In this document: positions 1,704 to 35,710 of the stretch, piece by piece | Numbering within the stretch: the first letter of the stretch is position 1 | Layout of the letters: each line of letters starts with the position of its first letter | Assembly: GCA_034664845.1 (NCBI GenBank) | Contig: JAXDGW010000010.1 | Location: forward strand, 58,936-122,935 | Length of the DNA stretch: 64,000 bases | Direction of reading: 5' to 3' | Origin: Thermoanaerobaculia bacterium | GTDB taxonomy: Bacteria; Acidobacteriota; Thermoanaerobaculia; Gp7-AA8 | Program-made: the position numbers and the translations under genes | The notes under the pieces: model-generated | The model's input: the letters and a program-made list of their open reading frames with translations, nothing else | The model's database searches: none | What the model was told of the DNA's origin: nothing

Positions 1704-2911
1704 GTCTTCGCCGCCAACACTCGCGTATATACGTCGACCAGGCTGTCGGTGATGACGTCCCACGAGTACCGCTCCGCGACGAGACGGCGCCCCGCCTCCC
1801 CCATCGCGCGCAGCGACGAACGATCGCCGAGGAGCTTGCGCAACGCATCCGCCATCTTCTCCGCGTCCGTGTTGACGATGACTCCCGCGCCCGCTTCTTC
1901 AACTTCGGGGAAGTTGCATTCTGGCGAGAGCATGACCGCCGTTGCGCTTGCGAGCGCTTCGAGGACGGCGTTGGAAAAGCCTTCCGCGAGCGACGGGAGA
2001 GAAAAGAGATCGGCGCGCGCCAGCACGTCTGCCTTTTCCTCACCGCCGATCATGCCGGCAAAGAACACACGATCACCGAGTACGTCCCGCGCGCGTTCGC
2101 GCCACGCTGTTTCCGAGCCCCACTCATCGGGTCCGGCAATCATCAACACAGCGTCGGGAAAGTCGTCCATCACGCGCAGAAAAGCATCGAGCAGCTTGTC
2201 CGTACCTTTGATCGGATGCAGGCGCCCGAGGAAGAGGATCATCACAGCGTCGGGCGAAACGCCGAAGCGGGCGTGGACGCGGGCTGCGGCTTCCGGCCGG
2301 GGCGGTGGGATGTCGACGCCGTTCGGCACGATTGCGATTGGAGTCCGTACGCCGAGGGCACGATACGACGTCCGTTCTGCCTCCGTGAGTGCCACGAGCG
2401 AGGCCGCGTGGTTCATGATCGGCTTTTCGATCGCACCGATGTACAGCCGTTTCTTCAAGCCGCGAAAGCGCAAGCGCTCCTCGGCAAAGCATCCCCGCTG
2501 GCTATACAGAAGCGGCTTGTGATGGCGCAACGCCGCATGAGCCGCAGCGTACGAGGGATAGACGAACGGCCCCTGCGTGTGCACGACGTCGATGTCCGGC
2601 ATGAGCCGGTCGAGCGCCGCGCGCATTTTGGGCGCGTACATGAACCCGATCGATCGCGAGAGATACGGCACGAAAGGAAGCAGCTTCTGCATCGGCTCCT
2701 GCCGCCGGAAATACCAGACCTGCACGCCGTCGACGTCGACAGGAACACCGAGCGGGACGTCGATATCCTGATCGTTGTTCGCGGTCGTCGTGACGACGGT
2801 GACGTCATGCCCTTTGCGGACGAGTCTCTCCGCCGCCGCGGAGACCGAGACGATCGGTCCTCCCAATCGATACGCTGGTTTGTAGCCGGTACCGGCGTAA
2901 AGAATCCTCAT
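1700..2911 (-). CDS. Glycosyltransferase family 4
   Basis: This is the C-terminal 403 aa of ORF 1700..3616, beginning MRILYAGTGYKP...GHDVTVVTT... with GT4 fold motifs (EGFSNAVLEALA). The ATG at 2909-2911 overlaps the upstream gene's stop (ATGA). The N-terminal 235 aa of the long ORF are Arg-rich out-of-context sequence. Confidence 0.75.
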   Translation of the reverse strand: MRILYAGTGYKPAYRLGGPIVSVSAAAERLVRKGHDVTVVTTTANNDQDIDVPLGVPVDVDGVQVWYFRRQEPMQKLLPFVPYLSRSIGFMYAPKMRAALDRLMPDIDVVHTQGPFVYPSYAAAHAALRHHKPLLYSQRGCFAEERLRFRGLKKRLYIGAIEKPIMNHAASLVALTEAERTSYRALGVRTPIAIVPNGVDIPPPRPEAAARVHARFGVSPDAVMILFLGRLHPIKGTDKLLDAFLRVMDDFPDAVLMIAGPDEWGSETAWRERARDVLGDRVFFAGMIGGEEKADVLARADLFSLPSLAEGFSNAVLEALASATAVMLSPECNFPEVEEAGAGVIVNTDAEKMADALRKLLGDRSSLRAMGEAGRRLVAERYSWDVITDSLVDVYTRVLAAKT

Positions 2912-3894
2912 CAGCGTTTGACGGCGCGGCCGACCACAAGTCCTTCGCGCGCGGCATCCACGTCTCGCAGACCCGCCTCGGTCAGCCAGTCGCGCACCAT
3001 CGCGGCCGTCTGCGGATGATCGTGCGCCGGAGCGAGCATGTCGAACGTGTCGAGGATGGCCCACTCGCGATGTTGTTCCATCGTGAGCGGGAAGACGCGG
3101 TAGTACATCATGATCGGAAGGACATACCGGAGGCGCCCGCCGATCAGCGGAATCGCCGCAAGCACCCTGCTGACCGGCAAGAGCTTTGGTACCAACCGCT
3201 CCACGATGGCGAAGAGCCGGCCCTGCCGCATCCGGCGTGTAAAGGGCCGCAGCCAGTATTTCGACCACAACACGTTCGCCGCCAGCTTTGGATAAAAATC
3301 GAGTGCGAGCTTGCCACCTGCCTTGAGCGGCGACGACAGGGCGAGCACGGCACGATGAGGATCGGGCGTGTGTTGCAGAACGCCCATGCAATAGACGTAG
3401 TCGAAGGAAGAGGCCTTGACCGGCAGCCGATAGACGTCGGCCTGGACAACGGAGAGCCGCGGATGCGGTCCGAGGTTCGCGTAGCACGCGTCGACGGCCG
3501 TGGAGTGATCGACGGCGACCACCTCCGCGCCTGTCGCGAGCGCCACCTCGGCGAAACGGCCGGCACCGCAGCCGATGTCGAGCACCCGTTTGCCTGCCAT
3601 CTCTTCCGGCGTCCATCGCGATTCTTTGAAAAAGCGCTCCCGCGCGATCGGCAAACCAGTGCGGCTATCGAGCTGTGTCGTCCTGAATTTGTTCCATTGG
3701 AATCCGAACGAATTGGCGTACGTGTCTGCGGGAACGAAGCGCGGAACGTGTCGCACGATCGGGAACGTTCGCGGGCAACCGGCGCAGTGCAGGGTGCCGG
3801 TTTCGATACTTTCTCCGCTCCGCACCGCCGGGTCGAGCGTCAACGAGCCGCCACAATCGGGACAAGCGAGGATGTCGAGGAGGTCTGGCGTCAT
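2911..3894 (-). CDS. Trm112-like zinc-ribbon + class I SAM-dependent methyltransferase
   Basis: N-terminus LDILACPDCGGSL...LHCAGCPRTFPI (Trm112p-like Cys4 ribbon), then the FGFQWNKF motif and SAM motif I (VLDIGCGAGRF). It is paralogous to ORF 10628..11704. Confidence 0.7.
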   Translation of the reverse strand: MTPDLLDILACPDCGGSLTLDPAVRSGESIETGTLHCAGCPRTFPIVRHVPRFVPADTYANSFGFQWNKFRTTQLDSRTGLPIARERFFKESRWTPEEMAGKRVLDIGCGAGRFAEVALATGAEVVAVDHSTAVDACYANLGPHPRLSVVQADVYRLPVKASSFDYVYCMGVLQHTPDPHRAVLALSSPLKAGGKLALDFYPKLAANVLWSKYWLRPFTRRMRQGRLFAIVERLVPKLLPVSRVLAAIPLIGGRLRYVLPIMMYYRVFPLTMEQHREWAILDTFDMLAPAHDHPQTAAMVRDWLTEAGLRDVDAAREGLVVGRAVKR

Positions 3895-4236: not shown

Positions 4237-5355
4237 CTACCCTATCTCCGTCGTTGCAGGCTTGTGGCGTGACGCGGCAATATCGATGGCGCGCCGGTAA
4301 GCATCTTCGTAGCGCTTCGCCGTCTCTTCGAGCGACTGCGAGGTTAGCGCCGACCGCGCGCGTCCCGCACGCGCTTCCGCCTCCGGACGATCGGCGAGCG
4401 CTTTCGCAATCGCAGCGCCGATGGCCCGGTTGTCGCCGCCACTGACGAAAAAGGCCGCATCATCAGCGAGAATCGAGCGGTACGCCGGGATGTCGGAAAC
4501 AATCAGCGGCACGCCCGCAGCAATCGCCTCGAGCACGGCGTTCGGATGGCCTTCGCAAAGCGAAACCGCAACAACGGCGCTGGAACGTCGTAGCCAGGAA
4601 GCGATGTCGTGCACGAATCCCGCGAAGATGACACGAGCGTCGAGGCCCGCCGCACGGACCTGAGCCATCAGGTCGTCGCGCATCGGCCCGTCGCCGCAAA
4701 AGGCGAACTTAGCGCGCGGCCGTTCACGAACCACGTGCTGCAGCGAGTCCACGAGCGTCGTCAGGTTTTTTTCCGGGCTGAGACGTCCGACATGGATGAC
4801 AAGCTCGTCGCCGGTGCTGATGCGTGAGTCGTCGAGAGGAGCGGCCGAAGCCATCTCCCCCATCGGAACGAAGTTTGGGATGACCTCGATTCGGGAACGA
4901 TCCACAGCCTGGGCCGCCCAGTAGCCGGCTCCACCGTCCGAGTTAGGCAGGATCAGAGTGGCGTGCCTGCCCGTCGCGACGCGGACGCGATTCAACAGCG
5001 TGGGTGGATAGCTGAGCGCGGCGCTTCTCTCGCTCATTACCCAGGGGACGCGCAACAACCGCGCAACCCCACCGCCGACGATGTCCATGTGTATCAACCA
5101 GGTGTGCACCACGTCCGGTCGAGGGCGGCGTACAAGTTTGAATGCCCGCGCCACGAGCGACGGATCGTATTTTGCCGCGGTGGCGAGACGATGGAGCGTC
5201 ACCCCGGTTCCTGCAAGTCTGTCGGAATTGACTCCGGGTCCAACAAACGCGACGTGTACGTCGTGGCCACGCCGGCTCAACTCTGACGCCAGATAGGCAA
5301 GCTGCCGCTCCGCCCCGCCGCCGGTCATTGTGAGAATCATGTGGAGGATCCTCAC
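4237..5355 (-). CDS. Glycosyltransferase family 4
   Basis: (V/M)RILHMILTMTGGGAERQLAYLASELSRRGHDVHV... is a typical GT4 N-terminus, with an E-x7-E-type C-terminal domain. The GTG start at 5355 overlaps the upstream TGA. Confidence 0.75.
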   Translation of the reverse strand: MRILHMILTMTGGGAERQLAYLASELSRRGHDVHVAFVGPGVNSDRLAGTGVTLHRLATAAKYDPSLVARAFKLVRRPRPDVVHTWLIHMDIVGGGVARLLRVPWVMSERSAALSYPPTLLNRVRVATGRHATLILPNSDGGAGYWAAQAVDRSRIEVIPNFVPMGEMASAAPLDDSRISTGDELVIHVGRLSPEKNLTTLVDSLQHVVRERPRAKFAFCGDGPMRDDLMAQVRAAGLDARVIFAGFVHDIASWLRRSSAVVAVSLCEGHPNAVLEAIAAGVPLIVSDIPAYRSILADDAAFFVSGGDNRAIGAAIAKALADRPEAEARAGRARSALTSQSLEETAKRYEDAYRRAIDIAASRHKPATTEIG

Positions 5356-6872
5356 GCACGCACCACTGCGGACGGCCCTTCAGCCGTTTTACGTCCGACA
5401 CGGCTCAAGACCTGTTCGAGCAACTTGGTAGCAACGACGACCGGCAGGAAGTGATAGACAACGAAGTAGACGAAGTAGAACGTCGACGCGCGGAACGTGT
5501 AGTACGCCCAGATGCTGATGAAAAGGTAGAGCAGCGTCGGCCAGAAATAGGACGAGTGCCTTACATACCAGCGGTGCAGAAGGGCAAGACACATGGCCAG
5601 TGCCACCCCGCGCAGCACGAGCTCAATCCAATCGAGTCCGACTGCGGCCTGCGACATGACTCCGAACATGTACCCAACGCCCGCTCCGGTCTGCCCAATG
5701 GCGTCGATGTACCACGACGATGGATCGATCTTTTCGAATGGCAGAAACTGGCTGGGGATGGGAAAGTAGAAATCGCTGACGTACACCTGCCACGGAATCG
5801 AAGTGATGTCGCCCGATTCGCGCCGTTTCTTGATGTCATAGGCGGTCGTGAAGAGTCCCTGGAATTCGTTAGCGGCGGTCAGGATGTGCTGCGCCTGTTC
5901 TTTCCTCATGTCACCCGAGCGTGTGTTTCGAATGGCGCCCGCCACCATGAACGCGGCAAGCAGCAGAGAGCCGGACACCACGAGCGTCCGAAAACTGACG
6001 CGCTTCACGAGGCGGTGGTAGAGCACTCCGGCGCTGATGAGCAGGAGCACGACCTTCCCGCGCGAGCCGAGACGGATGGCGCTGATCACCACTTCGGAGC
6101 CCAGCCACATGACCAGCGCATAACGGCACCACCGCTTCCGCCAATGAGAAAGCAACAGCACGATGACGCCTAGTTGCACGACAAACAGCGCCGATAGACT
6201 GTTGTGACTGATCTGCTGCATCAGGTACGGCATGTCGCGGCCACTGTGCGCCGCAGACATAGGATCGGCATAACTGTAGTCCTCAGGGTCGTAGTCATAA
6301 ACGATCCTCAGCGCGATCTTGAAGATATAGAGCGCAATGAACATGACGGCGACAGCCGCCTGTGTGGCAGGACTCGGCAGCGCGAATACCGTCGTCTTCA
6401 CCGCCTTACGTCCGCGCATGACCAGATACGACACCGCGAACGAAACGGCATAGACGACGTAGCGCCAGCCGAACATCCCGAGCTCGGCCGCATTGAACGA
6501 ATACGCGTGCATGCGGCCATCGACGAATTGGTCCCACTCCCCTCTCATCATGAGGAAGCCAACCATCGGGAGCGTTCCGTACACGGTGATGGCGAGCATG
6601 CACAGTGTTCCGGCTTCGAATACCGGAGGTGAGCCGTCGCGGGCCCACATGACCATCATGTAAACCGAAGACGTTACGACAATCGCCAGCATGGGAGCGG
6701 CGAGCAACCGGTCGTCCCCTTTCAGCAGAAGAAGGGCCGCCACGCTGGCGATGGCAACGAACAGGCAGAACGCGATGGCCTGCCGGCGGCGTCGTCGAGC
6801 GGCGTCTCGGACGCTGCGGACGAATATGCGGCGCCGGGGAGGTAGTGACGCTGCGGCCAGCACGTCACTCAT
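5352..6872 (-). CDS. Polytopic membrane protein, Wzy-like O-antigen/EPS polymerase candidate
   Basis: 506 aa with more than 10 predicted TM helices and large loops. It is the only multi-TM non-flippase protein in the operon. The ATGA overlap with the GT2 gene upstream supports this start. Confidence 0.5.
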   Translation of the reverse strand: MSDVLAAASLPPRRRIFVRSVRDAARRRRRQAIAFCLFVAIASVAALLLLKGDDRLLAAPMLAIVVTSSVYMMVMWARDGSPPVFEAGTLCMLAITVYGTLPMVGFLMMRGEWDQFVDGRMHAYSFNAAELGMFGWRYVVYAVSFAVSYLVMRGRKAVKTTVFALPSPATQAAVAVMFIALYIFKIALRIVYDYDPEDYSYADPMSAAHSGRDMPYLMQQISHNSLSALFVVQLGVIVLLLSHWRKRWCRYALVMWLGSEVVISAIRLGSRGKVVLLLISAGVLYHRLVKRVSFRTLVVSGSLLLAAFMVAGAIRNTRSGDMRKEQAQHILTAANEFQGLFTTAYDIKKRRESGDITSIPWQVYVSDFYFPIPSQFLPFEKIDPSSWYIDAIGQTGAGVGYMFGVMSQAAVGLDWIELVLRGVALAMCLALLHRWYVRHSSYFWPTLLYLFISIWAYYTFRASTFYFVYFVVYHFLPVVVATKLLEQVLSRVGRKTAEGPSAVVRA

Positions 6873-7957
6873 TTCGCATCCTCTTTCAAATGTTTCTCGT
6901 CCGCTTCACGAAAGAGCGTAGCCCGTCCCGAGAACGCGCGCGCGCTCGTTGCCGCGAAACGCAGCGCTCCCTGAGCGAACGCCGGCAAGTCGTAGCGCGC
7001 CGCCGTCAGATACCACCGGCTCATCGTTGCCGGTGAGGCGTTCGCGGCCATCGTGGCGATCCGCGCGATCAGCGATGCCGACTGAGCGCGGATCTCGCGG
7101 AGTTGTGCGGCCTCGGGCCAGATCTTCACGAACCGTTCATAGGCGCTGTCGATCAAGCGTACGAGCGGTTCGAGCGTCTCCAGAGCCGGGTAGAGCCGGG
7201 GATTCGTACCCCTCGTGAGCACGTCGATCCCGGCGGCGGCAGCAGGCTCGGCACCGATCGTCGCAGCGACATTGCTCATGAACACTTCGGCCACCCGTCG
7301 GATCGCCTCCATCGAATAACGCGAGGAGATCGACGTGCTTCTGCCGCGGTTCGCAACGAGTGTCTCATGCACACTGCGGAGAGGATGCTCGCGGCTGAGC
7401 CGCGACCAGAGCTCGAAATCCTGATTCGTGCGGAAGGTCTCGTCATACCCGCCGAAACGATCGAGCACGAGGTCGCGGCGGAAAACGACCGCCGAATGGA
7501 CAAACGGGTTTTCGTACATCAACTGCCAGCGGATGCCGAGGTGTGTTTCGCACCTTCGGAGACGCGCTCGGCGGCGGCCAAGCTCGTCGATGGAGACAGC
7601 CTGCGAGCCGACCACGGCGACGTCGCCGTTGCGCTCGAGAAACGCCACCTGGCGTGCCAGACGGTCGCGAAACGAGACGTCGTCGGCATCCTGCCGGGCG
7701 ATTAGAGCGCCGCGCGCTTCGCGGAGACCTAGATTGAGCGAGCGCGTGAGGCCGATGTTTTCCGGGTTGCGAATGATCCGGATTCGCTTGTCGTCATACG
7801 ACGCAAGAATGGCCGGCGTCGCGTCCCTCGAAGCGTCGTCGATGATGAGAAACTCGAAATCGCGGTAGGTCTGGCCGAGGATCGAGTCGATCGCCTCGCG
7901 AAGATACCCCTCGCCGTCGTAGACGCACAGCAGCACGGTAACCAGCGGAGCGGTCAC
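6869..7957 (-). CDS. Glycosyltransferase family 2
   Basis: The C-terminal 362 aa of ORF 6869..8671 carry the GT2 signature VTVLLCVYDGEGYLREAIDSILGQTYRDFEFLIIDDASRD...QDADD. The GTG start at 7955-7957 overlaps the AsnB TGA. Confidence 0.7.
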   Translation of the reverse strand: MTAPLVTVLLCVYDGEGYLREAIDSILGQTYRDFEFLIIDDASRDATPAILASYDDKRIRIIRNPENIGLTRSLNLGLREARGALIARQDADDVSFRDRLARQVAFLERNGDVAVVGSQAVSIDELGRRRARLRRCETHLGIRWQLMYENPFVHSAVVFRRDLVLDRFGGYDETFRTNQDFELWSRLSREHPLRSVHETLVANRGRSTSISSRYSMEAIRRVAEVFMSNVAATIGAEPAAAAGIDVLTRGTNPRLYPALETLEPLVRLIDSAYERFVKIWPEAAQLREIRAQSASLIARIATMAANASPATMSRWYLTAARYDLPAFAQGALRFAATSARAFSGRATLFREADEKHLKEDAK

Positions 7958-9777
7958 CACGCGACCTCGTGCCTCTCCAGCCAGATGCCGAGGGACATCA
8001 TGATCCAGGCGCGGTAGTTGTGCTCCTCGAGCACGTCGTCGACGGGACCGCGCAGCAATTCGCGCAGTTTCGATTTCGGCCCGGTAACCCGCCGCGTGAG
8101 CGCCGCGACGTCCGGCTTCTCCATCCATGCGCCGATCGGGGAGCCGAAGCCCTGCTTGCCCCGGCCGTGCAGTTCCTCCGGCCAGTAGCGCTCGCACGCC
8201 TCGCGCAACACGAGCTTGCCGCGGTTCTCGTCGACCTTCAGCGCGGCAGGCAACGACAATGCAAACTCGGCGAGGTCGCGGTCGAGAAACGGCGCGCGCG
8301 TCTCGAGCCCGTGCGCCATCGCCGCACGATCGACCTTCACGAGGATGTCGCCCGGCAGGTAGTGCATGAGGTCGAAGAAAAGTCCCCGATCGATGCCCTT
8401 CACGTCGTCGCCAGGCCGGTACAAATCGCCGGGAGTCCACGACGGAACGGATCGTCCCCACAGCTTCTGCCGTTGGCGCGGTGATGTCGTGACGTGGCTT
8501 TGAATGTCGCCGAGCCAGGGATCCGGCCAACGGGCGGCGTAGCCAAGAGCGATCGACTTCCGCGCAAGCGCGATGTTGCGGTCGCGCAGCAGCTTGCTCG
8601 CGATACGAGCGACGATCCAGAGCGCATAGGAATGCGTCACCTGCCCTGCCCGCACGAGCATGGAGTGCCACGGATACCCGCCGAACAATTCGTCGCCGCC
8701 ATCGCCCGAAAGAACGACCTTCACGTGCCGGCTCGCAAACTCGGATACGAGAAACGTCGGAATGTGTGACGTGTCGGCAAACGGCTCGTCGTAGACATCG
8801 CTCATCCGCTCGATCAGTCCGGCCACATCGAGCGTTTCCAGGTACAGCTCATAGTGTTCGGTTCGATACCGCTCGGCAACCGCGCGCGCATACGGAAGCT
8901 CATTGATGAGCGAACCGAAGCCGACGGAAAACGTCTTCACGGGGATCGCGGAGTGCTCCTGCATCAGCGCCACGATCGTGCTCGAGTCGAGGCCGCCGCT
9001 GAGAAACGCGCCGACCGGCACATCGGCGATCATCTGGCGCTTGACCGCGCGGCCGGCGAGATGCCGCAATTCCTCGGCCGCCTCGTCCATGCCGATTTGC
9101 CGTTCGCCGAGCCGCGGCCGCCAGTACGGCTCGACAGTCACGTTGCCTTCGCGCCAATCGAGGCAGTGCGCCGGAGGCAGTGTCGCGACGTCGCGATAGA
9201 CCGTACGGTCCGGCGGGACGTAGCCGAAGGCGAGGAATGCGTCGACGGAAACCAGATCGAGAGAATGGCCGACTAGTTTCGACGCCAGAATCGCCCGAAT
9301 TTCCGAGGCGATGACGAGCGCGCCGTCGCTCATCCGCGCGTAATAGAGCGGCTTTTCGCCGAAGATGTCGCGGGCCGCAAAGAGTGTTCGGTTGTGCGTG
9401 TCCCACAGTGCGAACGCGAACATGCCGCGGAATCGCTGGAGACAATCGCGGCCCCACTCGTGATACGCGGCGATGATGACCTCAGTATCCGAATGGGTTC
9501 GGAACGGGTGACCTTTCCCTTCGAGCTCGTCACGCAGCTCGAGAAAATTGTAGAGCTCTCCGTTGTAGGTGATCCAGTACCGCTCCGATGCATCACTCAT
9601 CGGTTGTGCGCCCGAGCTCAGATCGATGATGCTCAGACGGACATGGCCCAATGCGCAGTCACGCACACTGGCCGTGCCGCGGGCGTCAGGTCCGCGATGC
9701 TCGAGCGTATCGATCATCACGGAAACGAGCTCGAGCCGGTTCGCTACCGGGCTGATGATCGCGGCAATTCCGCACAT
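7954..9777 (-). CDS. asnB: Asparagine synthetase (glutamine-hydrolysing) family amidotransferase (AsnB/WbpS-like)
   Basis: MCGIAAII...LEHRGPDARG...GHVRLSIIDLSSGAQPM, an N-terminal Ntn GATase domain, and an asparagine-synthase adenylation domain with an SGGLDSS PP-loop. 607 aa. Confidence 0.85.
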   Translation of the reverse strand: MCGIAAIISPVANRLELVSVMIDTLEHRGPDARGTASVRDCALGHVRLSIIDLSSGAQPMSDASERYWITYNGELYNFLELRDELEGKGHPFRTHSDTEVIIAAYHEWGRDCLQRFRGMFAFALWDTHNRTLFAARDIFGEKPLYYARMSDGALVIASEIRAILASKLVGHSLDLVSVDAFLAFGYVPPDRTVYRDVATLPPAHCLDWREGNVTVEPYWRPRLGERQIGMDEAAEELRHLAGRAVKRQMIADVPVGAFLSGGLDSSTIVALMQEHSAIPVKTFSVGFGSLINELPYARAVAERYRTEHYELYLETLDVAGLIERMSDVYDEPFADTSHIPTFLVSEFASRHVKVVLSGDGGDELFGGYPWHSMLVRAGQVTHSYALWIVARIASKLLRDRNIALARKSIALGYAARWPDPWLGDIQSHVTTSPRQRQKLWGRSVPSWTPGDLYRPGDDVKGIDRGLFFDLMHYLPGDILVKVDRAAMAHGLETRAPFLDRDLAEFALSLPAALKVDENRGKLVLREACERYWPEELHGRGKQGFGSPIGAWMEKPDVAALTRRVTGPKSKLRELLRGPVDDVLEEHNYRAWIMMSLGIWLERHEVAW

Positions 9778-18000: not shown

Positions 18001-18005
18001 ACTCG

Positions 18006-19831: not shown

Positions 19832-19862
19832 TGTCGAGATCTCCAATCCGAATTGCGGAATT

Positions 19863-29201: not shown

Positions 29202-29969
29202 TCACCATACTTTCCAGGGCGCCTTCCCCGTTCCCCAGAGTGCATCGAGGAGGGTCTTGTCGCGAAGCGTGTCCATCGGCTGCCAGAAGCCGTCATGTTT
29301 GTACGCCGAGAGGTGTCCGTCGCGCGCAAGCGTCTCGAGCGGCTCGCGCTCCCAAATCGTCTCATCGCCGCCGAGGTAATCGAATACCTGCGGCTCGAGT
29401 ACGAAGAACCCGCCGTTAACCCAGCTGCCATCGCCGGGAGGCTTTTCGGCGAACGTCCGGATCTTCTCCGCCTCGATATCGATCACGCCGAAACGGCCGG
29501 GTGGCTGAACCGCCGTCAACGTCGCAAAGGTCTTTTGCTCGCGGTGAAAATCGATCAGCTTCGCGATGTTGACGTCGGCCAGCCCGTCGCCATACGTGAA
29601 ACAGAACGTCTCTCCATCGACGTGGTGCCGGACGCGTCCGAGGCGGCCACCGGTCTGGGTGTCCTGGCCGGTGTCGACCAGCGTGACCGTCCATGGTTCG
29701 GATGTGCTGTGATGCACGGAAACTTCATTGCTGCGCAGATTGATCGTCACGTCGGACATGTGCAGAAAGTAGTTCGCGAAGTACTCCTTGATCATGTAAC
29801 CCTTGTATCCAAGGCAGATCACGAAGTCGTTGATCCCATGCGCCGAGTACAACTTCATGATGTGCCAGAGGACGGGCATTCCTCCCAGCTCGACCATCGG
29901 CTTCGGACGAATGACTGTTTCTTCGCTGAGTCGCGTGCCGAGTCCACCGGCGAGAATGACGGCTTTCAT
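29202..29969 (-). CDS. rfbF: Glucose-1-phosphate cytidylyltransferase
   Basis: [75 protein letters not shown] is nearly collinear with enterobacterial RfbF. ATGA overlap with fcl. Confidence 0.85.
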   Translation of the reverse strand: MKAVILAGGLGTRLSEETVIRPKPMVELGGMPVLWHIMKLYSAHGINDFVICLGYKGYMIKEYFANYFLHMSDVTINLRSNEVSVHHSTSEPWTVTLVDTGQDTQTGGRLGRVRHHVDGETFCFTYGDGLADVNIAKLIDFHREQKTFATLTAVQPPGRFGVIDIEAEKIRTFAEKPPGDGSWVNGGFFVLEPQVFDYLGGDETIWEREPLETLARDGHLSAYKHDGFWQPMDTLRDKTLLDALWGTGKAPWKVW

Positions 29970-30937
29970 TGGCTGACCTCGTCCGATCCGCGTTGTTGAT
30001 TTCGATGGCCGTTGAACCATTCGATCGTGGCGGCGAGTCCGCCGGCGAATGACGTCTGGGACTGGAATCCGAACTCGCGCGCGGCGCGCGAGACATCAAG
30101 CCGCCGGTTGGGCTGTCCATTCGGCTTGGTGCTGTCCCACTCGACGTTGCCTTCGTATCCGACGAGGTGGCGGATCGTCTCGGCAAGATCCTTGATCGAG
30201 ATCTCCTTCCCGCTTCCGAGATTCACGGGGTCCGCGCCGTCGTAGCGGCTGGCCGCTGCCACGATTCCATCGGCAGCATCGGCCGCGTAGAGAAATTCGC
30301 GCGTCGGCGTGCCGTCACCCCAGAGCGTCACGGTCGGGCGACGGAGCTCCTTTGCGTCGACAAACTTGCGGATCATGGCGGGGATGACATGGCTCGACTC
30401 GAGATCGAAGTTGTCTCCGGGGCCGTAGAGGTTCACGGGAAGAAGGAAGATGCCGTTGAAGCCGTACTCCTGCCGGTAGGCCTGAAGCTGGACGAGGAGC
30501 GCTTTCTTGGCGATGCCATACGCCGCGTTCGTTTCCTCGGGGTAGCCATTCCAGAGATCGTCTTCGCGGAACGGAATCGGCGCGAACTTCGGATAGGCGC
30601 AGATCGTTCCGAGACAGACGAACTTGGCGACGCCGGCAAGGCGCGCTTCTTCGATGAGCTGAATCCCCATGATGGCGTTTTCGTAGAAAAAACTGCCCGG
30701 ATGCTTCTGGTTCGCGCCGATTCCGCCAACGACCGCGGCGGCGTGGATGATGATGTCGGGCTTCTGTGCCGCGAGATACGCGCGCACTGCGGCGGCGTCC
30801 CTGAGATCGAGCTCCTGTTTGCGCGGCGCGAGGATCGCGGCGGGCTGCTCCCGTTCCAGACGCTGGCGAATGAACGTGCCGAGAAAACCGCCGCCGCCGG
30901 TCAGAAGAACGCGCCGGCCCGGCCAGAATCCGCTCAT
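29966..30937 (-). CDS. fcl: GDP-L-fucose synthase (GDP-4-keto-6-deoxy-D-mannose 3,5-epimerase/4-reductase)
   Basis: [14 protein letters not shown]...[23 protein letters not shown]...NAAYGIAKK (Y-x3-K). ATGA overlap with gmd. Confidence 0.85.
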
Positions 30938-32007
30938 GAGCCGCCCGCTTTCAACTGCCCCTCGTTCGCGGCGAGCATGAGGTCCGCATCGACCATCATG
31001 TTGACGAGCTCCAGGAATGTCGTCCGCGGCGCCCAGCCGAGCTTTTCCCTCGCTTTTGTGGCGTCGCCGCACAGCAGCTCGACTTCGGACGGACGGAGAT
31101 AGCGCGGGTCGATGACGACACGCGTCTTTCCCGTTGCGGCGTCGATTCCCTGCTCGTCAGACCCGCTCCCTCGCCACTCGATGCGGATACCGGCGCGCTC
31201 GAAGGCAAGCTCGCAGAATTTGCGCACCGTGTGCGTCTCGGAAGTGGCCACCACGTAGTCGTCCGGCTGATCCTGTTGCAGCATGAGCCACATTGCCTCG
31301 ACGTAATCCCGGGCGTAACCCCAGTCGCGTTTTGCGTCGAGGTTGCCGAGATAGAGGCATTCCTGCAGACCATGCTTGATGCGGCCGACCGCTCGCGTGA
31401 TCTTGCGCGAGACGAACGTTTCACCGCGGCGCGGCGACTCGTGATTGAAGAGAATGCCGTTCGAGGCGTACAAACCGTAAGCCTCGCGATAGTTCACCGT
31501 CATCCAGTACGCGTAAACCTTCGCTACGCCATACGGGCTTCGCGGATAGAAAGGAGTCGTCTCGCGCTGCGGTGTCTCCATCACTTTGCCGAACATCTCA
31601 GACGAGGATGCCTGATAGATCCGCGGACGCAGTTCCAGCTCGCGAATGGCCTCGAGGAGCCTCACCGATCCGAGCCCGGTTACTTCGCCCGTGTACTCAG
31701 GCGTGTCGAACGACACCTTCACGTGACTCTGGGCGCCGAGGTTGTAGATCTCATCGGGCTTGACGATTCGAAGGATCCGATTCAGCGACGAGGCATCGTT
31801 GAGGTCGCCGTAGTGAAGGATCAACCGCCGGCCCAGCTCGTGCGGATCCTCATAAATCGAGTCGATGCGCTGCGTGTTGAAGGACGACGAGCGCCTGATG
31901 ATGCCGTGCACCTCGTAGCCCTTTTCGAGCAGAAGCTCGGCAAGGTAGGAGCCGTCCTGGCCGGTGATGCCGGTGATGAGTGCTTTTTTCAGCGCCTGTT
32001 CAGCCAT
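30934..32007 (-). CDS. gmd: GDP-mannose 4,6-dehydratase
   Basis: [46 protein letters not shown]...SSSEMFGK...[12 protein letters not shown]. Canonical Gmd. Confidence 0.9.
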
Positions 32008-32121
32008 CAGTCTTGCGTCCCGGGGACTCACCGGACGGGCTTCGCCCCCTTCGGTATACACACCGAGAGATCAGCACGGGAAAGCGACCCGCTTCGCATG
32101 TTCCTTCGCCGGCAGCCCGCG

Positions 32122-33177: not shown

Positions 33178-34800
33178 TTGCGCGCTATGACCGATTCTCA
33201 TCACGCGGAAATTGTTGAAGTCGTCGACCGGCCGGTGTCCATCAGCCATCTCACCCACACGCTGCAGGCGTATGGGCCAGCCATCTTCCTCTCAACCGCC
33301 GCCATCGCCGTTCTCTACCTCATCCTCAGCGTGGCGATTTACGTTCTCTCGCCCACGCAGCGGATCAGCTCGCAGCAGTTCCGCTTGGATTTCGAAGGCG
33401 CCTCGGAAGCGAAGTACCCGAACGGAATCAAGTTCTCGAGTAGCGATATCACCTCGACGCCCATTCTCCTGAAGGTCTTTCAGGACAATCAACTGGACCG
33501 GTTCACGAGCTTTCCGAACTTCAGCCGCTCGCTGGTTGTCCTCGAGTCCAATGCCGACTACGAGCGCCTGGCCGCCGAGTACCAGGCTCGTCTGGCCGAT
33601 CCGAAGCAATCCGCGATCGACCGGGAGCGCGTCTTGCGCGACTGGCAGGCGAAAGCGTCGAGCATCGCCAAGAACGATTTTTCCCTCAACTGGTTCCGCA
33701 CGCGCGACACCGCTGCCGTTCCTGAGAGTGTCGTCAAGAAGGTTCTACTCGATACTCTGAGCTCCTGGGCTCGGTATGCTGCCAACGAGCAGCACGTGCT
33801 CAAGTACCGGCTGACTGTGTTCTCGCCGGAGATGATCGGGTCGGCCGATACCGACAGCGAGCCGATCGTGGCCATTCAGGTCCTCCGCTCGAAGATCTAC
33901 AAGGTTCTGCAGAACATCGATGCACTTCGCGAGGTCCCCGGGTCCGAGCTCGTTCGAGGTCCGGACGGGATGAATCTGGACGAGATCCGGCTTCGCCTGG
34001 AAGAGATCATCCGTTTCCACCTTGACCCGCTCACCGGACGCGTGAGCACGACTGGTCTGATCGCAAACCGGCCGGCCACGCTCCGGTTTCTCGAGAGCCA
34101 GCTCGCCTACGATCAACGCCACATGAAAGCCACGCAGGATTATGCGGACGTGATCCGGCAGTCCTTCGCGGTGTACTCACTCGATCAACGTGGGTTCTCA
34201 CCGGACAGCGTCACCGCGGCCGCGGCGACGGCCGCGGCGCCTCCTAACCAGCAGCACCCGCAGCAGCAACGCTCCGACACGTTGATGCCGCAGATCGGCG
34301 ACTCCTTCCTGGACCGGCTGCTAACCCTGACGTCTCAGTCCAGCGATATTCAATATCGCCAGAAGGTCGCGGACGAGTACCGGCGTGCTTCGGAAGCGGT
34401 CATCCCGGCGCAACAGTCAGTAGCCTACGATCAGGAAGTACTCGTCCAGGTGAGGTCCAGCGCCACCGCACCCATCGCCGGAGAAGCAGACGGCGTACGA
34501 AACGAGATCATCGCGACGAAGAATGAGGTCAAGCAATTGCTCGGCCGCGTCAATCACATTTACGATGCCGTTTCGGCGAATCTCAATCCATCCAAAGAGC
34601 TCTACACGCTCACGGCGCCCTCCGTGGTGCGCACGGAACACTCGCGCAGCCTTTTTCAACTCGCCCTGTATGGCGTAGCGGTGATCGCGCTCTCGCTGAT
34701 CGTCATCATCATTCTCTGTCTTATCCACGCCCGAATCCGCGAGGAAGAGGCGGCCGAGACGCATTCAAGTGAAGCGCTCCGCACCGATGGACAACCCTGA
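33178..34800 (+). CDS. Polysaccharide co-polymerase (PCP/GumC-EpsF-like chain-length determinant) candidate, no kinase domain
   Basis: 540 aa. One TM near residues 33-56, a large soluble domain with coiled-coil-like segments, and a second TM near residues 495-518. This is the classic PCP topology. It is divergent from the operon leader. Confidence 0.4.
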   Translation: MRAMTDSHHAEIVEVVDRPVSISHLTHTLQAYGPAIFLSTAAIAVLYLILSVAIYVLSPTQRISSQQFRLDFEGASEAKYPNGIKFSSSDITSTPILLKVFQDNQLDRFTSFPNFSRSLVVLESNADYERLAAEYQARLADPKQSAIDRERVLRDWQAKASSIAKNDFSLNWFRTRDTAAVPESVVKKVLLDTLSSWARYAANEQHVLKYRLTVFSPEMIGSADTDSEPIVAIQVLRSKIYKVLQNIDALREVPGSELVRGPDGMNLDEIRLRLEEIIRFHLDPLTGRVSTTGLIANRPATLRFLESQLAYDQRHMKATQDYADVIRQSFAVYSLDQRGFSPDSVTAAAATAAAPPNQQHPQQQRSDTLMPQIGDSFLDRLLTLTSQSSDIQYRQKVADEYRRASEAVIPAQQSVAYDQEVLVQVRSSATAPIAGEADGVRNEIIATKNEVKQLLGRVNHIYDAVSANLNPSKELYTLTAPSVVRTEHSRSLFQLALYGVAVIALSLIVIIILCLIHARIREEEAAETHSSEALRTDGQP

Positions 34801-35710
34801 GGAGCAGAGCGGCGGGCGCAAGTTCGCCGCTCTCTTCAAGGAGATCTCCCGCTCCCAGCACGCCGGCAAGTGCGATTCGCACGACCGCGCGGCCCTTGAA
34901 AAATCTCTGGATCTACTGCTGCGGATCGGAAGCGAACTGGGGGTCACGATTGGGCCGGCCAGCCGGGTTCTCGATTTCGGCTGTGGTCTCGGCGAGACGG
35001 TCGAGATCCTGCTTTCGCGGGGCATCGAGGCTTACGGTGTCGACGTCGGCGAGTGGTGGGGAAAGGATTTCGACGCCTATTGGCAAAAGGGTGATCTTCC
35101 TGCCGCCGGCGTTCTGGCACGTTTGCATTCCATCAACGAAGACCGCTATGTGTTGCCCTTTCCGGACGACTCGTTCGATTTGATCATCAGCACCGCTACG
35201 TTCGAGCACGTGTTCAACTACGAAACGGTCTTTCGCGAGATTCACCGCGTGCTCAAGCCGACAGGGATTTCCGTCAACATTTTCCCAGGACGCTGGTCGC
35301 CGGTGGAGCCTCACGTCGGCATTCCGATCATTCCGCTTTGCAAACACAATTGGTGGCTGGCACTCTGGGCTCTGCGACGGGGCACAGGAGTTGGCTGGCG
35401 CGAGCACTACCACTCCTTGCAGGGCACCATGAAACTCACTTGCTATCCGACGCGCAAGCAGGTCCGTCGCTACGCAGCCGCAGCCGGGGCGCATCTCGAA
35501 TTCTGCGAACGGCTCTATGTCGCTCTCTCAGCCTCAAGGCCTAACCGCATCGTGCGAGCGGCGAGCCGCTTCGGTCTGGGAAGGGTTGTTTCCGCCGCCG
35601 TGGAGCGGGTTTGCCAAAGGACGATGGTTCTGCGAAAACGTACCGCGCCGGGGCTCGATTCGCGGGGCGTCGGGAGAGCGTCCGCACAGCACGGAGCGAT
35701 CACGCCCTGA
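34769..35710 (+). CDS. Class I SAM-dependent methyltransferase
   Basis: RVLDFGCGLGETVEIL (motif I) and DLIISTATFEHV. The start may be M7 at 34787. Confidence 0.6.
   Translation: MKRSAPMDNPEEQSGGRKFAALFKEISRSQHAGKCDSHDRAALEKSLDLLLRIGSELGVTIGPASRVLDFGCGLGETVEILLSRGIEAYGVDVGEWWGKDFDAYWQKGDLPAAGVLARLHSINEDRYVLPFPDDSFDLIISTATFEHVFNYETVFREIHRVLKPTGISVNIFPGRWSPVEPHVGIPIIPLCKHNWWLALWALRRGTGVGWREHYHSLQGTMKLTCYPTRKQVRRYAAAAGAHLEFCERLYVALSASRPNRIVRAASRFGLGRVVSAAVERVCQRTMVLRKRTAPGLDSRGVGRASAQHGAITP

Follow-up and report, generated by a model that had tools for sequence, protein, structure and literature searches.

A predicted CDP-linked C-methyl 6-deoxyhexose cassette in a methyltransferase-rich surface-polysaccharide operon of an uncultured Thermoanaerobaculia bacterium

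When a sugar C-methyltransferase gene lies among genes for several nucleotide-sugar pathways, which activated sugar does the enzyme methylate, and what becomes of the product? Here we address this question for a Wzx/Wzy-type surface-polysaccharide operon of an uncultured, soil-type member of the Thermoanaerobaculia (Acidobacteriota). The operon comprises 27 genes running in one direction, from position 32061 to 1700 of the 64,000-nucleotide stretch of DNA that was analysed (the window). The features given with coordinates below lie on the minus strand, apart from the methyltransferase gene MT8 (plus strand) and the gene for a Wzz-like two-TM protein upstream of it (33178-34800; recognised by its TM pattern). 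The explanation that we favour, and that we regard as reasonably probable when taken as a whole, is a CDP-3-C-methyl cassette with an amino-sugar branch and a tailoring block.

The cassette contains rfbF (29202..29969; 255 aa), encoding glucose-1-phosphate cytidylyltransferase (TIGR02623, 453.6 bits, cutoff 300), rfbG (28142..29197; 351 aa), encoding CDP-glucose 4,6-dehydratase (TIGR02622, 460 bits, cutoff 278), a gene for a TylCIII/TcaB9-type NDP-hexose C-methyltransferase (C-MT; 26916..28142; 408 aa) and a gene for an RmlC-like NDP-4-keto-6-deoxyhexose epimerase (26383..26919; PF00908, 205 bits; TIGR01221, 165.5 bits, cutoff 155.75), whose TTG start overlaps the C-MT stop. The position of the C-MT gene between rfbG and the epimerase gene, pointed out in the initial annotation, was confirmed, and the gene is coupled upstream to rfbF/rfbG and downstream to the epimerase gene. 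The operon reads as gap-free and the cassette genes as translationally coupled: starts and stops overlap at fcl/rfbF (ATGA), rfbG/C-MT (TAATG) and C-MT/RmlC (TTGA), and the rfbF stop is followed after 4 nt by the in-frame ATG of rfbG. Both the zinc ribbon and the C-terminal C-methyltransferase domain, on which the initial annotation had staked its assignment, are present in the C-MT (Methyltransf_13, PF08421, 82 bits; Methyltransf_23, PF13489, 63 bits; Methyltransf_14, PF08484, 222 bits). Residues 4-402 match PDB 4rv9 at 1.6e-88, with KijD1 and TcaB9 also matched; the zinc-ribbon cysteines C5, C8, C48 and C51 line up with those of MtmC and KijD1, and Y215, E217 and H218 are invariant. The His, Lys, Tyr and Asp positions of the RmlC-like protein line up with RmlC 9j9s, and a C-MT::RmlC fusion protein (P0078) was found in one of the loci used for comparison (L003).

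The survey covered 80 genome loci whose C-MT is 62-76% identical to that of the window. A nucleotidyltransferase gene lay beside the C-MT gene in 75 of them, and RfbF (at least 45% identity) was present in 40; a true RfbG in addition to RfbF was found in 16, RmlC after C-MT in 64, and Gmd near C-MT in only four. The closest C-MT relatives (L001, 76%; L087, 78%) both occur in the order RfbF-RfbG-CMT-RmlC-SDR reductase-CmcI. A Peteryoungia plasmid carries two copies of the order rfbF-rfbG-MT-rfbC (PGAP annotation), and a ddhA-ddhB-'NDP-hexose 3-C-methyltransferase' trio is annotated on pSymB of Sinorhizobium meliloti (PMC4053727). The cassette is present in many phyla, and annotations of rhizobial plasmids list it as a matter of routine. 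The window C-MT shares 56% identity with the Bacillus cereus-group enzyme, but 38.5% and 36.7% with the dTDP enzymes MtmC and KijD1, respectively. Because of this difference in identity, the coupling to true rfbF and rfbG equivalogs, and the recurrence of the order rfbF-rfbG-C-MT(-RmlC) in many phyla, we infer CDP as the nucleotide carrier; a CDP-linked substrate, giving a C-methyl 6-deoxyhexose, is the best-supported reading of the sequences. CDP-yersiniose is another C-branched sugar on CDP (PMC9306805). Nothing else that would use up the RfbG product is encoded at the locus, in particular no RfbH (E1), for which NF011936 scored far under its cutoff.

The initial annotation had also proposed a CDP-linked C-methyl 6-deoxyhexose, and had implied that it was novel because C-branched sugar pathways are mostly dTDP-linked. 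The substrate reading holds up, whereas the novelty does not: a CDP-linked 3-C-methyl-6-deoxyhexose pathway, that of CDP-cereose/cillose in B. cereus, has been experimentally characterised, as stated in papers that cite the work (PMC7725333, PMC10050317). For the comparison, a C-MT from a 1007-member B. cereus-group cluster (at least 90% identity) stood in for Q81B31. Li and colleagues reportedly assigned in 2017 the activities of Q81B33, Q81B32, Q81B31 and Q81B30 of B. cereus ATCC 14579 in the formation of CDP-cereose and CDP-cillose. The RfbF, RfbG, C-MT and reductase of a B. cereus-group locus (L085) have the lengths of these four proteins (255, 359, 407 and 307 aa), and the window rfbF product is as long as Q81B33. 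The B. cereus operon resembles the window in encoding cytidylyltransferase, 4,6-dehydratase and TylCIII-type C-MT in the same order, with C-MT similarity over the full length, and in making a sugar of a cell-surface glycan rather than of an antibiotic. The window differs in lacking an ortholog of the 4-reductase and in adding an RmlC-like epimerase, a Per-like aminotransferase, a CmcI-like O-methyltransferase and an ATP-grasp/aldolase block, so a different final sugar is expected.

Other carriers fit the locus less well. TylCIII, MtmC, KijD1 and TcaB9, which act at C-3 of dTDP-hexoses, share the three domains, the zinc cysteines and the Tyr/Glu/His motif with the window C-MT (E 1e-88 to 1e-71), and every solved C-MT relative uses dTDP sugars. 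That the C-MT and the RmlC-like protein, which does exceed the TIGR01221 cutoff, act on dTDP-4-keto-6-deoxyglucose supplied via the RmlA equivalog at 46.6 kb (TIGR01207, 486 bits, cutoff 360) is nevertheless highly improbable: this gene lies 18 kb away with unrelated genes between, neither RmlB nor RmlD was found above cutoff in the scanned ORFs, the C-MT shares no more than 37-38% identity with the dTDP enzymes, and the conserved neighbour of the C-MT clade is RfbF, not RmlA. Moreover, those enzymes belong to secondary metabolism, where their substrates are dTDP-2,6-dideoxy or 3-amino sugars, whereas the window C-MT is partnered by rfbF and rfbG within a glycan locus of the Wzx/Wzy type. It also seems unlikely that the C-MT acts on GDP-4-keto-6-deoxy-D-mannose from Gmd (30934..32061; TIGR01472, 583 bits, cutoff 415), with epimerisation and reduction by the GDP-L-fucose-synthase-like epimerase/reductase (Fcl-like; 29966..31072, true start near 30920; NF047922, 307 bits, cutoff of 500 not reached), whose stop overlaps the rfbF start, while RfbF and RfbG feed an unrelated CDP sugar. 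Genes in the order Gmd-Fcl-RfbF-RfbG-CMT-RmlC do indeed adjoin one another and are coupled, both in the window and in L002, L003 and L088, and a GDP- or dTDP-pathway has been proposed for virenose of Coxiella burnetii, in which a TylCIII-like C-MT (CBU_0691) likewise lies in an LPS locus beside GMD (CBU_0689) and a GDP-fucose-synthase-like enzyme (GMER, CBU_0688) (PMC3539893). That proposal involves no CDP enzymes, whereas the window C-MT is coupled to rfbG. The rarity of Gmd in the survey, compared with the frequency of nucleotidyltransferases and RfbF, argues against a GDP route, as do the similarity of the C-MT to the B. cereus-group CDP-pathway enzyme and the absence of another consumer of the RfbG product at the locus. 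Furthermore, gmd had no match within the fetched flanks (7-10 kb) of the Bacillus, Sinorhizobium and Peteryoungia cassettes, nor in the 21 kb fetched around the DegT gene of the Peteryoungia cassette L084. Gmd and the Fcl-like enzyme may provide GDP-L-fucose or a related 6-deoxyhexose.

In the CDP pathway that we prefer, RfbF would form CDP-glucose, RfbG would convert it to CDP-4-keto-6-deoxy-D-glucose, and the TylCIII-type enzyme would methylate C-3 via the 3,4-enolate, with SAM as the methyl donor. The choice of C-3 follows the B. cereus and TcaB9-type enzymes by analogy and is provisional, since NovU-like C-5 methyltransferases belong to the same family. The RmlC-like enzyme would epimerise the methylated product; with C-3 quaternary, only C-5 would be left to epimerise, which points to an L-series sugar. 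Because a cereose-type 4-reductase is absent from the locus, the most likely fate of the 4-keto group is transamination by a perosamine-synthase-like NDP-4-keto-6-deoxyhexose 4-aminotransferase (DegT; 16840..18021; PF01041, 392 bits), which would give CDP-4-amino-4,6-dideoxy-3-C-methyl-hexose. The DegT protein is the best match in the window to the aminotransferase of L084 (48% identity, 348 bits), which is translationally coupled to C-MT, and is 44% identical to that of L041. Its gene shares a 16-nt overlap with that of a CmcI/rhamnosyl-O-methyltransferase-family enzyme (18006..18740; PF04989, RMNT_CmcI, 301.6 bits; NF045824, 98.8 bits, cutoff of 400 not reached), as in amino-type CDP cassettes. 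A cassette of the form rfbF-rfbG-C-MT-RmlC-DegT-(GNAT or MT)-CmcI occurs in L002, L009, L039, L041 and L084, and a CmcI-like gene accompanies rfbF-rfbG-C-MT in L001, L002, L007, L009, L039, L084, L086, L087, L088, L090 and L091; L041 has it with rfbF-C-MT, no rfbG being detected there. The CmcI-like enzyme would O-methylate the amino sugar; the analogy to rhamnosyl 2-O-methyltransferases makes O-2 the probable site.

The sugar might instead be neutral, although we consider this rather doubtful. It would then be a CDP-6-deoxy-3-C-methyl-hexose that is cereose- or virenose-like, or vinelose-like after 5-epimerisation and 2-O-methylation, with the 4-keto group reduced by an SDR of the locus (11709..12782) or by the Fcl-like enzyme, either of which could serve as 4-reductase. 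DegT would act as a GDP-perosamine synthase on the product of Gmd, which is encoded within the operon, and the decoration made by the ATP-grasp block would go onto this perosamine or onto a uronic acid. The best PDB match of DegT is GDP-perosamine synthase 3dr7 (5.7e-90, 305 bits), and by sequence it is about equally similar to this enzyme and to the cassette aminotransferases, so that it could use the Gmd product instead of the CDP sugar. The presence of an SDR reductase and CmcI in L001 and L087 and the occurrence of the ATP-grasp block elsewhere without a C-MT are also in line with a neutral sugar. However, no window ortholog was found of the reductases of L001, L087, L025, L068 and L085, the best match being 22-26% identical and located at 37-38 kb, and both the DegT/CmcI overlap and the lack of a gmd in the 21 kb fetched around the coupled DegT of L084 favour the amino sugar. 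CDP-vinelose of Azotobacter vinelandii, reportedly described by Okuda, Suzuki and Suzuki in the 1960s, is said to be 6-deoxy-3-C-methyl-2-O-methyl-L-talose; its genes have, to our knowledge, never been assigned. Its CDP, 3-C-methyl, 2-O-methyl and L-series features would be expected from RfbF, RfbG, C-MT, an RmlC-like enzyme, a reductase and a CmcI-like enzyme, exactly the set held by the L001/L087-type relatives, whereas the window has an aminotransferase in place of the reductase.

Between the cassette and DegT lies the tailoring block: an ATP-grasp ligase of the L-amino-acid-ligase type (22496..23698; PF18603, LAL_C2, 63 bits, and ATP-grasp_4; PDB matches 4wd3 and 3vot, L-amino acid ligases), the small class I methyltransferase MT6 (21873..22499; PF08242 and PF13489, Methyltransf_12/23, 38 bits), a rare 307-aa protein (unk307; 20953..21876), a second DegT-family PLP enzyme (DegT2; 19863..20960; PF01041, 191 bits in two stretches; SFGGTK lysine present) and a DmpG-type 4-hydroxy-2-oxovalerate aldolase homologue (18785..19846; NF006049, 311 bits, cutoff 229; TIGR03217, 288 bits, cutoff 286; PDB 8ih7, 4.9e-58). 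Searches with unk307 gave no Pfam or NCBIfam match and only 98 clusters of homologues in 5.8 billion proteins; some are labelled PgdA/CDA1 by JGI, and the protein is possibly a CE4-like deacetylase or hydrolase. L088 has the contiguous order Fcl-RfbF-RfbG-CMT-RmlC-ATPgrasp-MT6-unk307-DegT2-HMGL-CmcI-DegT-Wzx-GT2-MT4, with a DegT2 ortholog of 74% identity. The ATP-grasp gene, the aldolase gene and CmcI also lie beside the cassette in L090 and L091 (50-68% identity); L090 keeps DegT (69%), and the L091 sequence ends before the DegT position. In L088 and L092-L094 the ATP-grasp gene (LAL type) adjoins unk307 or lies one or two genes upstream of it, whereas in L091 the distance is two genes. An MT6 ortholog of ~210 aa lies between the two in L088 and directly precedes unk307 in L092 and L094, and L094 has an HMGL-like gene. 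Since ATP-grasp, methyltransferase, unk307 and DegT genes occur together in L092-L094, loci without any C-MT, the block is not specific to the C-methyl sugar. In the window, these enzymes probably make an acyl or aminoacyl substituent and attach it, for example to the 4-amino group. The absence of a 4-reductase, together with the epimerase, the aminotransferase, the CmcI-like enzyme and the recurring block, makes a decorated 4-amino-3-C-methyl-6-deoxy sugar the likely product. The C-MT very probably adds a methyl branch on carbon to a CDP-activated 6-deoxy sugar, a chemistry known from B. cereus spores and placed here in a richer, uncharacterised tailoring context; the missing cereose-type 4-reductase and the added enzymes set this locus apart from that of B. 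cereus. By predicted chemistry alone, the closest known sugar is N-acyl kansosamine, 4,6-dideoxy-2-O-methyl-3-C-methyl-4-(2-methoxypropionamido)-L-mannose, which is also 3-C-methylated, 4-acylamino-4,6-dideoxy, L-series and 2-O-methylated. Its acyl group is O-methylated, and it occurs beside fucose. It is found in lipooligosaccharides of Mycobacterium kansasii (PMC4403928).

All eight methyltransferase-fold genes listed in the initial annotation proved to be genuine ORFs whose products have the fold of class I SAM-methyltransferases, seven by the Pfam searches it had suggested and the eighth by structure prediction. In addition to C-MT, the CmcI-like enzyme and MT6, they comprise MT1 (2911..3894; Trm112-like zinc ribbon, PF03966, 37 bits, and PF08241, Methyltransf_11, 69 bits), MT2 (9780..10682; PF08242, Methyltransf_12, 38 bits), MT3 (10628..11704; PF08241, 65 bits), MT4 (13820..14464) and MT8 (34769..35710; PF08241, 63 bits); these five may methylate other residues or cap the chain. 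MT4 contains the motif LVETGTYLGD but reached only 23.4 bits for Methyltransf_24 (threshold 26.3), and none of its 3684 homologues has a Pfam domain. Its AlphaFold2 model (pLDDT 88.8) resembles cation-dependent O-methyltransferases in the PDB, including TrmR, CCoAOMT-like and SafC enzymes (Foldseek probability 1.0, E about 1e-9, TM 0.5-0.6), and L088 has a 71% identical ortholog downstream of GT2. Methyltransferases were counted as 8 of the 27 co-directional genes (MT8 itself being listed on the opposite strand), compared with none among 14 other distinct ORFs scanned at 35.7-52 kb, so that their clustering is far above chance. Such numbers had been called unusual, but high density is typical of cassette-bearing loci, with four in 6 kb in L041, five in 17 kb in L090 and four in L093. 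A strongly hydrophobic glycan, as had been predicted, is not established either: genes for an NDP-sugar 6-dehydrogenase, an AsnB-type glutamine amidotransferase (7954..9777; PF00733, 312 bits, and GATase_7), aminotransferases and an amide ligase lie in the locus and its flanks, which leads one to expect polar or charged groups as well.

The operon further encodes a Wzx-type flippase (15341..16843; PF13440; about 10 TM segments), 45-46% identical to that downstream of the cassette in L001 and L039, a GT2 glycosyltransferase (14461..15351; PF00535, 102 bits) and a polytopic membrane protein with nine hydrophobic segments and no Pfam match (5352..6872), a candidate Wzy polymerase. The SDR epimerase/dehydratase/reductase mentioned above (PF01370, 139 bits) stayed under the cutoff of every NCBIfam model, and comparison ruled it out as an ortholog of the post-RmlC 4-reductase of L001 and L087. 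A secreted FG-GAP/Ig-like repeat protein (23741..26299; PF01839, PF13517 and PF13927; N-terminal signal-like hydrophobic segment) is an insertion in the operon rather than a sugar-pathway enzyme; its gene is missing from this position in L088 and present in L003.

The gene at 26916-28142 (-) encodes a 408-aa C-methyltransferase (C-MT) with an N-terminal zinc domain (PF08421 Methyltransf_13, 82 bits, full profile 1-62), a central class I SAM domain (PF13489, 62.7 bits, plus PF08242 and PF08241) and a C-terminal Methyltransf_14 domain (PF08484, 222 bits, profile positions 1-160 of 160). The zinc ribbon and the C-terminal C-methyltransferase domain postulated in the initial annotation are thus both present, so that its assignment cannot be refuted by their absence. 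Cysteines C5, C8, C48 and C51 align with the zinc cysteines of MtmC and KijD1, and the protein matches solved sugar C-3 methyltransferases from end to end (MtmC, 4rv9, 1.6e-88; KijD1, 5t64, 2e-78; TcaB9, 3ndi, 5.6e-72), with 38.5% and 36.7% identity to the dTDP enzymes MtmC and KijD1, respectively. Y215, E217 and H218, which form the Tyr-x-Glu-His motif (Y222/E224/H225 in TcaB9), do not vary among the window enzyme, MtmC, KijD1 and 15 homologous sequences of the loci compared. The C-5 methyltransferases (NovU) belong to the same family, and C-3 transfer by the window enzyme is predicted.

Directly upstream of the C-MT gene lie rfbF (29202-29969, -; 255 aa with refined start), identified as glucose-1-phosphate cytidylyltransferase (TIGR02623, 454 bits against a cutoff of 300), and rfbG (28142-29197, -; 351 aa with refined start), identified as CDP-glucose 4,6-dehydratase (TIGR02622, 460 bits against a cutoff of 278). 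Together with an RmlC-like epimerase gene (26383-26919, -), the four genes form a chain in which each stop codon overlaps or abuts the next start codon. A scan for relatives of C-MT with one genome per species yielded at least 570 genomic stretches, of which the best 80 (62–76% identical to C-MT) were analysed, and their neighbouring genes were labelled by tblastn. These 80 loci are distributed over Acidobacteriota, anammox Planctomycetes, Nitrospirota, Thermodesulfobacteriota, Verrucomicrobiota, Cyanobacteria, Actinomycetota, Pseudomonadota and others. A nucleotidyltransferase of any kind accompanies C-MT in 75 of the 80, RfbF at 45% identity or more in 40, a true RfbG in addition in 16, and an RmlC-like gene in 64. 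The conserved neighbour of the RmlC-like epimerase across loci is C-MT, and a natural fusion of the two in an Acidobacteriota genome (591-aa protein P0078; locus L003, 6001-7767) supports their functional link.

The conserved neighbourhood and the pattern of identities favour CDP over GDP and dTDP as the predicted carrier of the sugar. A GDP route, as proposed for Coxiella, would draw on Gmd and the Fcl-like enzyme encoded directly upstream; Gmd is a neighbour of C-MT in 4 of the 80 best loci, and we regard this route as improbable. Still further down the scale is a dTDP route via the distant RmlA, which we hold to be very improbable because no ORF among those scanned reached the cutoffs for RmlB (365) or RmlD (224). 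The RmlC-like gene itself exceeds the threshold of the dTDP-L-rhamnose model (TIGR01221, 165.5 bits against 155.75); this reading was rejected, with RmlA located at 46.6 kb but RmlB and RmlD missing among the scanned ORFs.

The cassette is also found on plasmids. In Peteryoungia desertarenae, PGAP annotates rfbF, rfbG, a class I SAM-dependent methyltransferase and rfbC in two copies, which are divergent and lie back to back on opposite strands (NZ_CP058351.1, 409-415 kb; L084). The two C-MTs share 59% and 51% identity with that of the window, and one copy is ordered epimerase-C-MT-DegT-(gap)-CmcI. Sinorhizobium megaplasmids in the plasmid collection carry the cassette as well; the gene context of the Sinorhizobium and Bacillus sp. 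plasmid records was rebuilt by tblastn. For Sinorhizobium meliloti pSymB, a comparative-genomics paper of 2013 lists ddhA, ddhB and an NDP-hexose 3-C-methyltransferase (SMb21416-18; PMC4053727). In the majority of the other lineages, a DUF4910/DUF2172/HTH_47 protein is linked to the same C-MT clade (49 of the best 80 loci, within L004-L080, and two further comparison loci, L081 and L083). Nitrospira, anammox bacteria and Desulfobacterota combine this protein with RfbF and a different SDR; in Nostoc and on rhizobial megaplasmids, it is accompanied by a PIG-L deacetylase and a distinct nucleotidyltransferase.

CDP-vinelose of Azotobacter vinelandii is a CDP-linked C-methyl sugar, and four consecutive proteins of Bacillus cereus ATCC 14579 reportedly synthesise CDP-cereose and CDP-cillose, the sugars being 3-C-methyl-6-deoxy-gulose and 3-C-methyl-6-deoxy-allose, respectively. 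These proteins, a cytidylyltransferase (Q81B33, 255 aa), a CDP-glucose 4,6-dehydratase (Q81B32, 351 aa), a C-methyltransferase (Q81B31, 407 aa) and a 4-reductase (Q81B30, 302 aa), are entered as experimentally characterised in the supplement of PMC7725333, and the citing passages of PMC7725333 and PMC10050317 name Li et al. 2017 (J Biol Chem 292:7636) as the primary work on CDP-cereose and CDP-cillose. A Bacillus record of the plasmid collection (L085) has the order RfbF-RfbG-C-MT-SDR with ORFs of 255, 359, 407 and 307 aa, and its C-MT falls into a cluster (at least 90% identity) of 1007 407-aa proteins of the B. cereus group. The window C-MT is 56% identical over 405 residues to a 407-aa member of this B. 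cereus-group cluster (as a stand-in for Q81B31) and likewise follows a cytidylyltransferase and a CDP-glucose 4,6-dehydratase. The two operons differ in what comes next: in Bacillus the 4-reductase directly follows C-MT, whereas the window has the RmlC-like gene in this position.

C-branched sugars include CDP-yersiniose, another CDP-linked one (PMC9306805), 3-C-methyl-mannose in the O-antigen of Helicobacter pylori, and virenose in the lipopolysaccharide of Coxiella (PMC3539893); C-methyl sugars in surface glycans are thus rare but known. The CDP-linked C-methyl 6-deoxyhexose proposed in the initial annotation is accordingly right in substance and the best-supported inference, but its unusualness was overstated, since a pathway of this kind has already been characterised in B. 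cereus. The result is mostly a well-supported annotation and less a discovery; the locus is a variant of this pathway with an extended tailoring module.

A search of the window with the reductases of L001 and L087, two Acidobacteriota relatives, recovered no ortholog of the cereose- or vinelose-type 4-reductase; the best matches were unrelated SDRs with 22–29% identity. Filing the window as a cereose pathway was rejected for lack of this ortholog. In place of the reductase, the window encodes a DegT-family aminotransferase (16840-18021) and a CmcI-like methyltransferase (18006-18740), which overlap by 16 nt and are directly followed by the flippase. The order RfbF-RfbG-C-MT-RmlC-DegT-(GNAT or MT)-CmcI recurs in L002, L009, L039, L041 and the second Peteryoungia copy, where the DegT and C-MT genes overlap by 4 nt; the best match of the Peteryoungia cassette DegT in the window is the product of 16840-18021 (48% identity, 348 bits). 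The window DegT retains the lysine of the SFHGSK motif, and its best match in PDB is GDP-perosamine synthase (3dr7, 5.7e-90; 305 bits to 3dr7/3bn1). Gmd is encoded in the same operon, but the window DegT is equally similar (48%) to an aminotransferase of a CDP cassette, and its substrate may be of either the GDP-perosamine type or the CDP-cassette type. Should DegT act as a perosamine synthase, the cassette would yield a neutral cereose- or vinelose-like product, a reading that we consider unlikely, with the window having no 4-reductase ortholog and a DegT gene recurring beside the cassette elsewhere. Both DegT and a second DegT-family enzyme, DegT2 (19863-20960), retain the PLP lysine. A 3-deoxygenation of the RfbH/E1 type leading to a 3,6-dideoxyhexose was rejected (NF011936, cutoff 423; 189 bits for DegT, 89 bits for DegT2).

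At the catalytic positions of RmlC, the RmlC-like protein retains His, Lys, Tyr and Asp. In RmlC/EvaD-type chemistry, a sugar methylated at C-3 can be epimerised only at C-5; the enzyme would therefore be expected to epimerise C-5 and to yield a sugar of the L-series. The CmcI-like enzyme matches PF04989 RMNT_CmcI with 301.6 bits (profile 2-204 of 206) and is not an equivalog of the mycobacterial rhamnosyl 2-O-methyltransferase (NF045824, 98.8 bits against a cutoff of 400); methylation at O-2 may be assumed only by analogy.

The interval from the RmlC-like gene to CmcI holds a block of five genes, which begins past an inserted gene for a secreted FG-GAP/Ig-like protein. They encode an ATP-grasp ligase with an L-amino-acid-ligase C-terminal domain, a 208-aa methyltransferase (21873-22499), a 307-aa protein (20953-21876, -) without a Pfam or NCBIfam match, DegT2, and a homologue of DmpG-type 4-hydroxy-2-oxovalerate aldolase (NF006049, 311 bits against a cutoff of 229; PDB 8ih7, 4.9e-58). 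A metagenome scan with the aldolase returned four loci, three of which (L088, L090, L091) keep the block. L088 is contiguous, has 67–86% identity, and shows the order Fcl-RfbF-RfbG-CMT-RmlC-ATPgrasp-MT-307aa-DegT2-aldolase-CmcI-DegT-Wzx-GT2-MT4 (MT4, the methyltransferase of 13820-14464) without the FG-GAP gene. L090 and L091 have ATP-grasp, aldolase and CmcI beside the cassette (50–68% identity); L090, an ABC-transporter-type locus, also keeps DegT (69%), and the contig of L091 ends inside the 307-aa gene, before any DegT position. In three other contigs (L092-L094), the 307-aa gene lies near the same type of ATP-grasp gene, usually with a small methyltransferase and DegT and often with CmcI; nucleotidyltransferase, SDR, RmlC and DegT genes occur in L092 and L093, none of them in L094, and no C-MT was found in the three contigs. 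This retention without C-MT identifies the block, as far as can be predicted from sequence, as a separable tailoring module for NDP-amino-6-deoxy sugars. The 307-aa protein belongs to a rare family of only 98 clusters among 5.8 billion proteins, and JGI labels some of these clusters as PgdA/CDA1-type deacetylases; two N-terminal motifs of the family, FTVDIDNDG and WHPH, recall CE4/NodB deacetylases. In glycan loci, whether or not C-MT is present, the L-amino-acid-ligase-type ATP-grasp gene adjoins the 307-aa gene or lies one or two genes upstream of it.

Our best guess is that the block would make a small hydroxy or amino acid and ligate it as an amide. By its predicted chemistry, the closest known sugar to the window product is the N-acyl kansosamine of Mycobacterium kansasii (PMC4403928). 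We put forward, tentatively and with more doubt than confidence in the proposal as a whole, including the N-substituent and the corollaries, that the window locus and L088, L090 and L091 specify an undescribed CDP-activated, kansosamine-like 4-acylamino-4,6-dideoxy-3-C-methyl-2-O-methyl-L-hexose. According to this proposal, the DmpG-type aldolase would use pyruvate to form an unusual hydroxy or amino acid as the future N-substituent; the PLP enzyme, the small methyltransferase and the hydrolase-like 307-aa protein would process it, and the ATP-grasp enzyme would attach it. If this kansosamine-like structure is correct, the block is a portable sugar-tailoring module not yet described. C-branched sugars of the cell surface are rare and often antigenically dominant, as in the case of virenose (Coxiella), cereose (B. 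cereus spores) and kansosamine (M. kansasii).

The region as a whole is a Wzx/Wzy-type surface-glycan locus and encodes a Wzx flippase, a Wzy candidate with nine TM segments and no Pfam match, and GT2 and GT4 glycosyltransferases. It includes a chain of 27 co-directional minus-strand genes from 32061 down to 1700, whose stop and start codons overlap or are at most 83 bp apart, with the sole exception of a 342-bp gap before 2911-3894; a Wzz-like protein with two TM segments is encoded on the opposite strand. The G + C content is about 60–63% throughout the window, with no compositional break at the glycan locus. Sugar-nucleotide genes extend to about 49 kb, and the region spans about 50 kb if the genes at 35700-49444 are counted, among them an NDP-sugar 6-dehydrogenase (35700-37067), an SDR (37034-38044), a sulfatase-family membrane protein (38065-39807), a transaldolase-like gene, an HddA-like heptose-phosphate kinase (41450-42430), the true RmlA (46604-47506) and a third DegT (48266-49444). 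The gene at 2911-3894 (-), in which an N-terminal Trm112p-like zinc ribbon is fused to a methyltransferase catalytic domain, may begin a separate transcription unit, given that the preceding gap is the only sizeable one in the chain. The FG-GAP/Ig-like repeat protein (852 aa; 23741-26299, -) is encoded inside the sugar operon, between the RmlC-like and ATP-grasp genes; L088 is collinear except that it lacks this gene here, and in L003 the C-MT::RmlC fusion is followed by a homologue with 41% identity. A second such protein (FG-GAP/DUF11) is encoded at 42553-44364, and each of the two might be a glycosylated substrate or a glycan-binding protein.

All eight ORFs initially assigned a methyltransferase fold retain this assignment: seven score above threshold with class I methyltransferase Pfam models, and the eighth was recognised by AlphaFold2 modelling and Foldseek. 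The latter (13820-14464) reaches only 23.4 bits with Methyltransf_24 and belongs to a family annotated as hypothetical, with 3684 database homologues (E 1e-5 or better) that have no Pfam domain. The model, based on an alignment of 30 homologues (pLDDT 88.8, pTM 0.87), has a seven-stranded alternating beta/alpha topology, and its Foldseek matches in PDB are exclusively SAM-dependent methyltransferases, with cation-dependent O-methyltransferases on top (TrmR 8k1f, CCoAOMT-like 3ntv and SafC 5log; probability 1.0, E ~1e-9). The ORF is thus confidently modelled with a cation-dependent O-methyltransferase fold, and its family is a candidate new Pfam family. The start codons first chosen for 13820-14464 and 26916-28142 also hold, giving ATGA and TAATG overlaps with the upstream genes.

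Eight methyltransferases in 27 genes are a real local enrichment, since none of 14 further distinct ORFs scanned at 35.7-52 kb is a methyltransferase. Other loci have four in 6 kb (L041), five in 17 kb (L090), four (L093), and three or four (L087); dense methyltransferases recur wherever the cassette occurs, and eight is the upper end of this pattern, not an isolated oddity. In a search against NCBIfam, C-MT matched no model and the other seven did not score above any cutoff, so no substrates can be assigned. Besides the methyltransferases, the locus with its flanks has genes for an NDP-sugar dehydrogenase, an AsnB-type amidotransferase, three aminotransferases and an amide ligase, so that the strongly hydrophobic polymer initially expected is not a safe prediction.

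The closest relatives of the window cassette are of a reductase type, with the order RfbF-RfbG-C-MT-RmlC-SDR reductase-CmcI-Wzx (L001, 4164-10873; L087, 8179-16594). Homologous reductases follow the RmlC-like gene in the Acidobacteriota loci L001, L025, L068 and L087 and follow C-MT in L022; in L001 and L087, the CmcI-like methyltransferase and the flippase come next. The reductase of the Bacillus record L085 is 38% identical to that of L001. L087 also contains a 135-aa Methyltransf_14 fragment (12762-13169), apparently the remnant of a second C-MT. CDP-vinelose is 6-deoxy-3-C-methyl-2-O-methyl-L-talose, and to our knowledge its genes have never been assigned. RfbF, RfbG, C-MT, epimerase, reductase and O-methyltransferase would constitute the set required for CDP-vinelose, which makes these loci a lead; as a corollary of the kansosamine-like structure, this sister cassette (L001, L087) would be the missing gene set. 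Literature searches for vinelose, and for cephalosporin hydroxylase with glucose-1-phosphate cytidylyltransferase and methyltransferase, retrieved no paper.

C-methylation cassettes of the CDP type are spread widely across phyla (Acidobacteriota, anammox Planctomycetes, Nitrospira, cyanobacteria, rhizobia, Bacillus) and occur in several fixed combinations, with a reductase, an aminotransferase, DUF4910, or the ATP-grasp/aldolase block. Such combinations are concrete gene sets for the expression of new nucleotide sugars and may assign orphan chemistry to genes, as for CDP-vinelose and a 174-Da unit in the S-layer O-glycan of Kuenenia stuttgartiensis, which has been called a 'dimethylated deoxyhexose' (PMC5088730). 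With the kansosamine-like reading, a related anammox cassette could supply the latter unit. A mass of 174 Da is also that of a 6-deoxyhexose with one C-methyl and one O-methyl group, and Kuenenia genomes (L005, L010) carry an RfbF-(RfbG or SDR)-C-MT-RmlC cassette.
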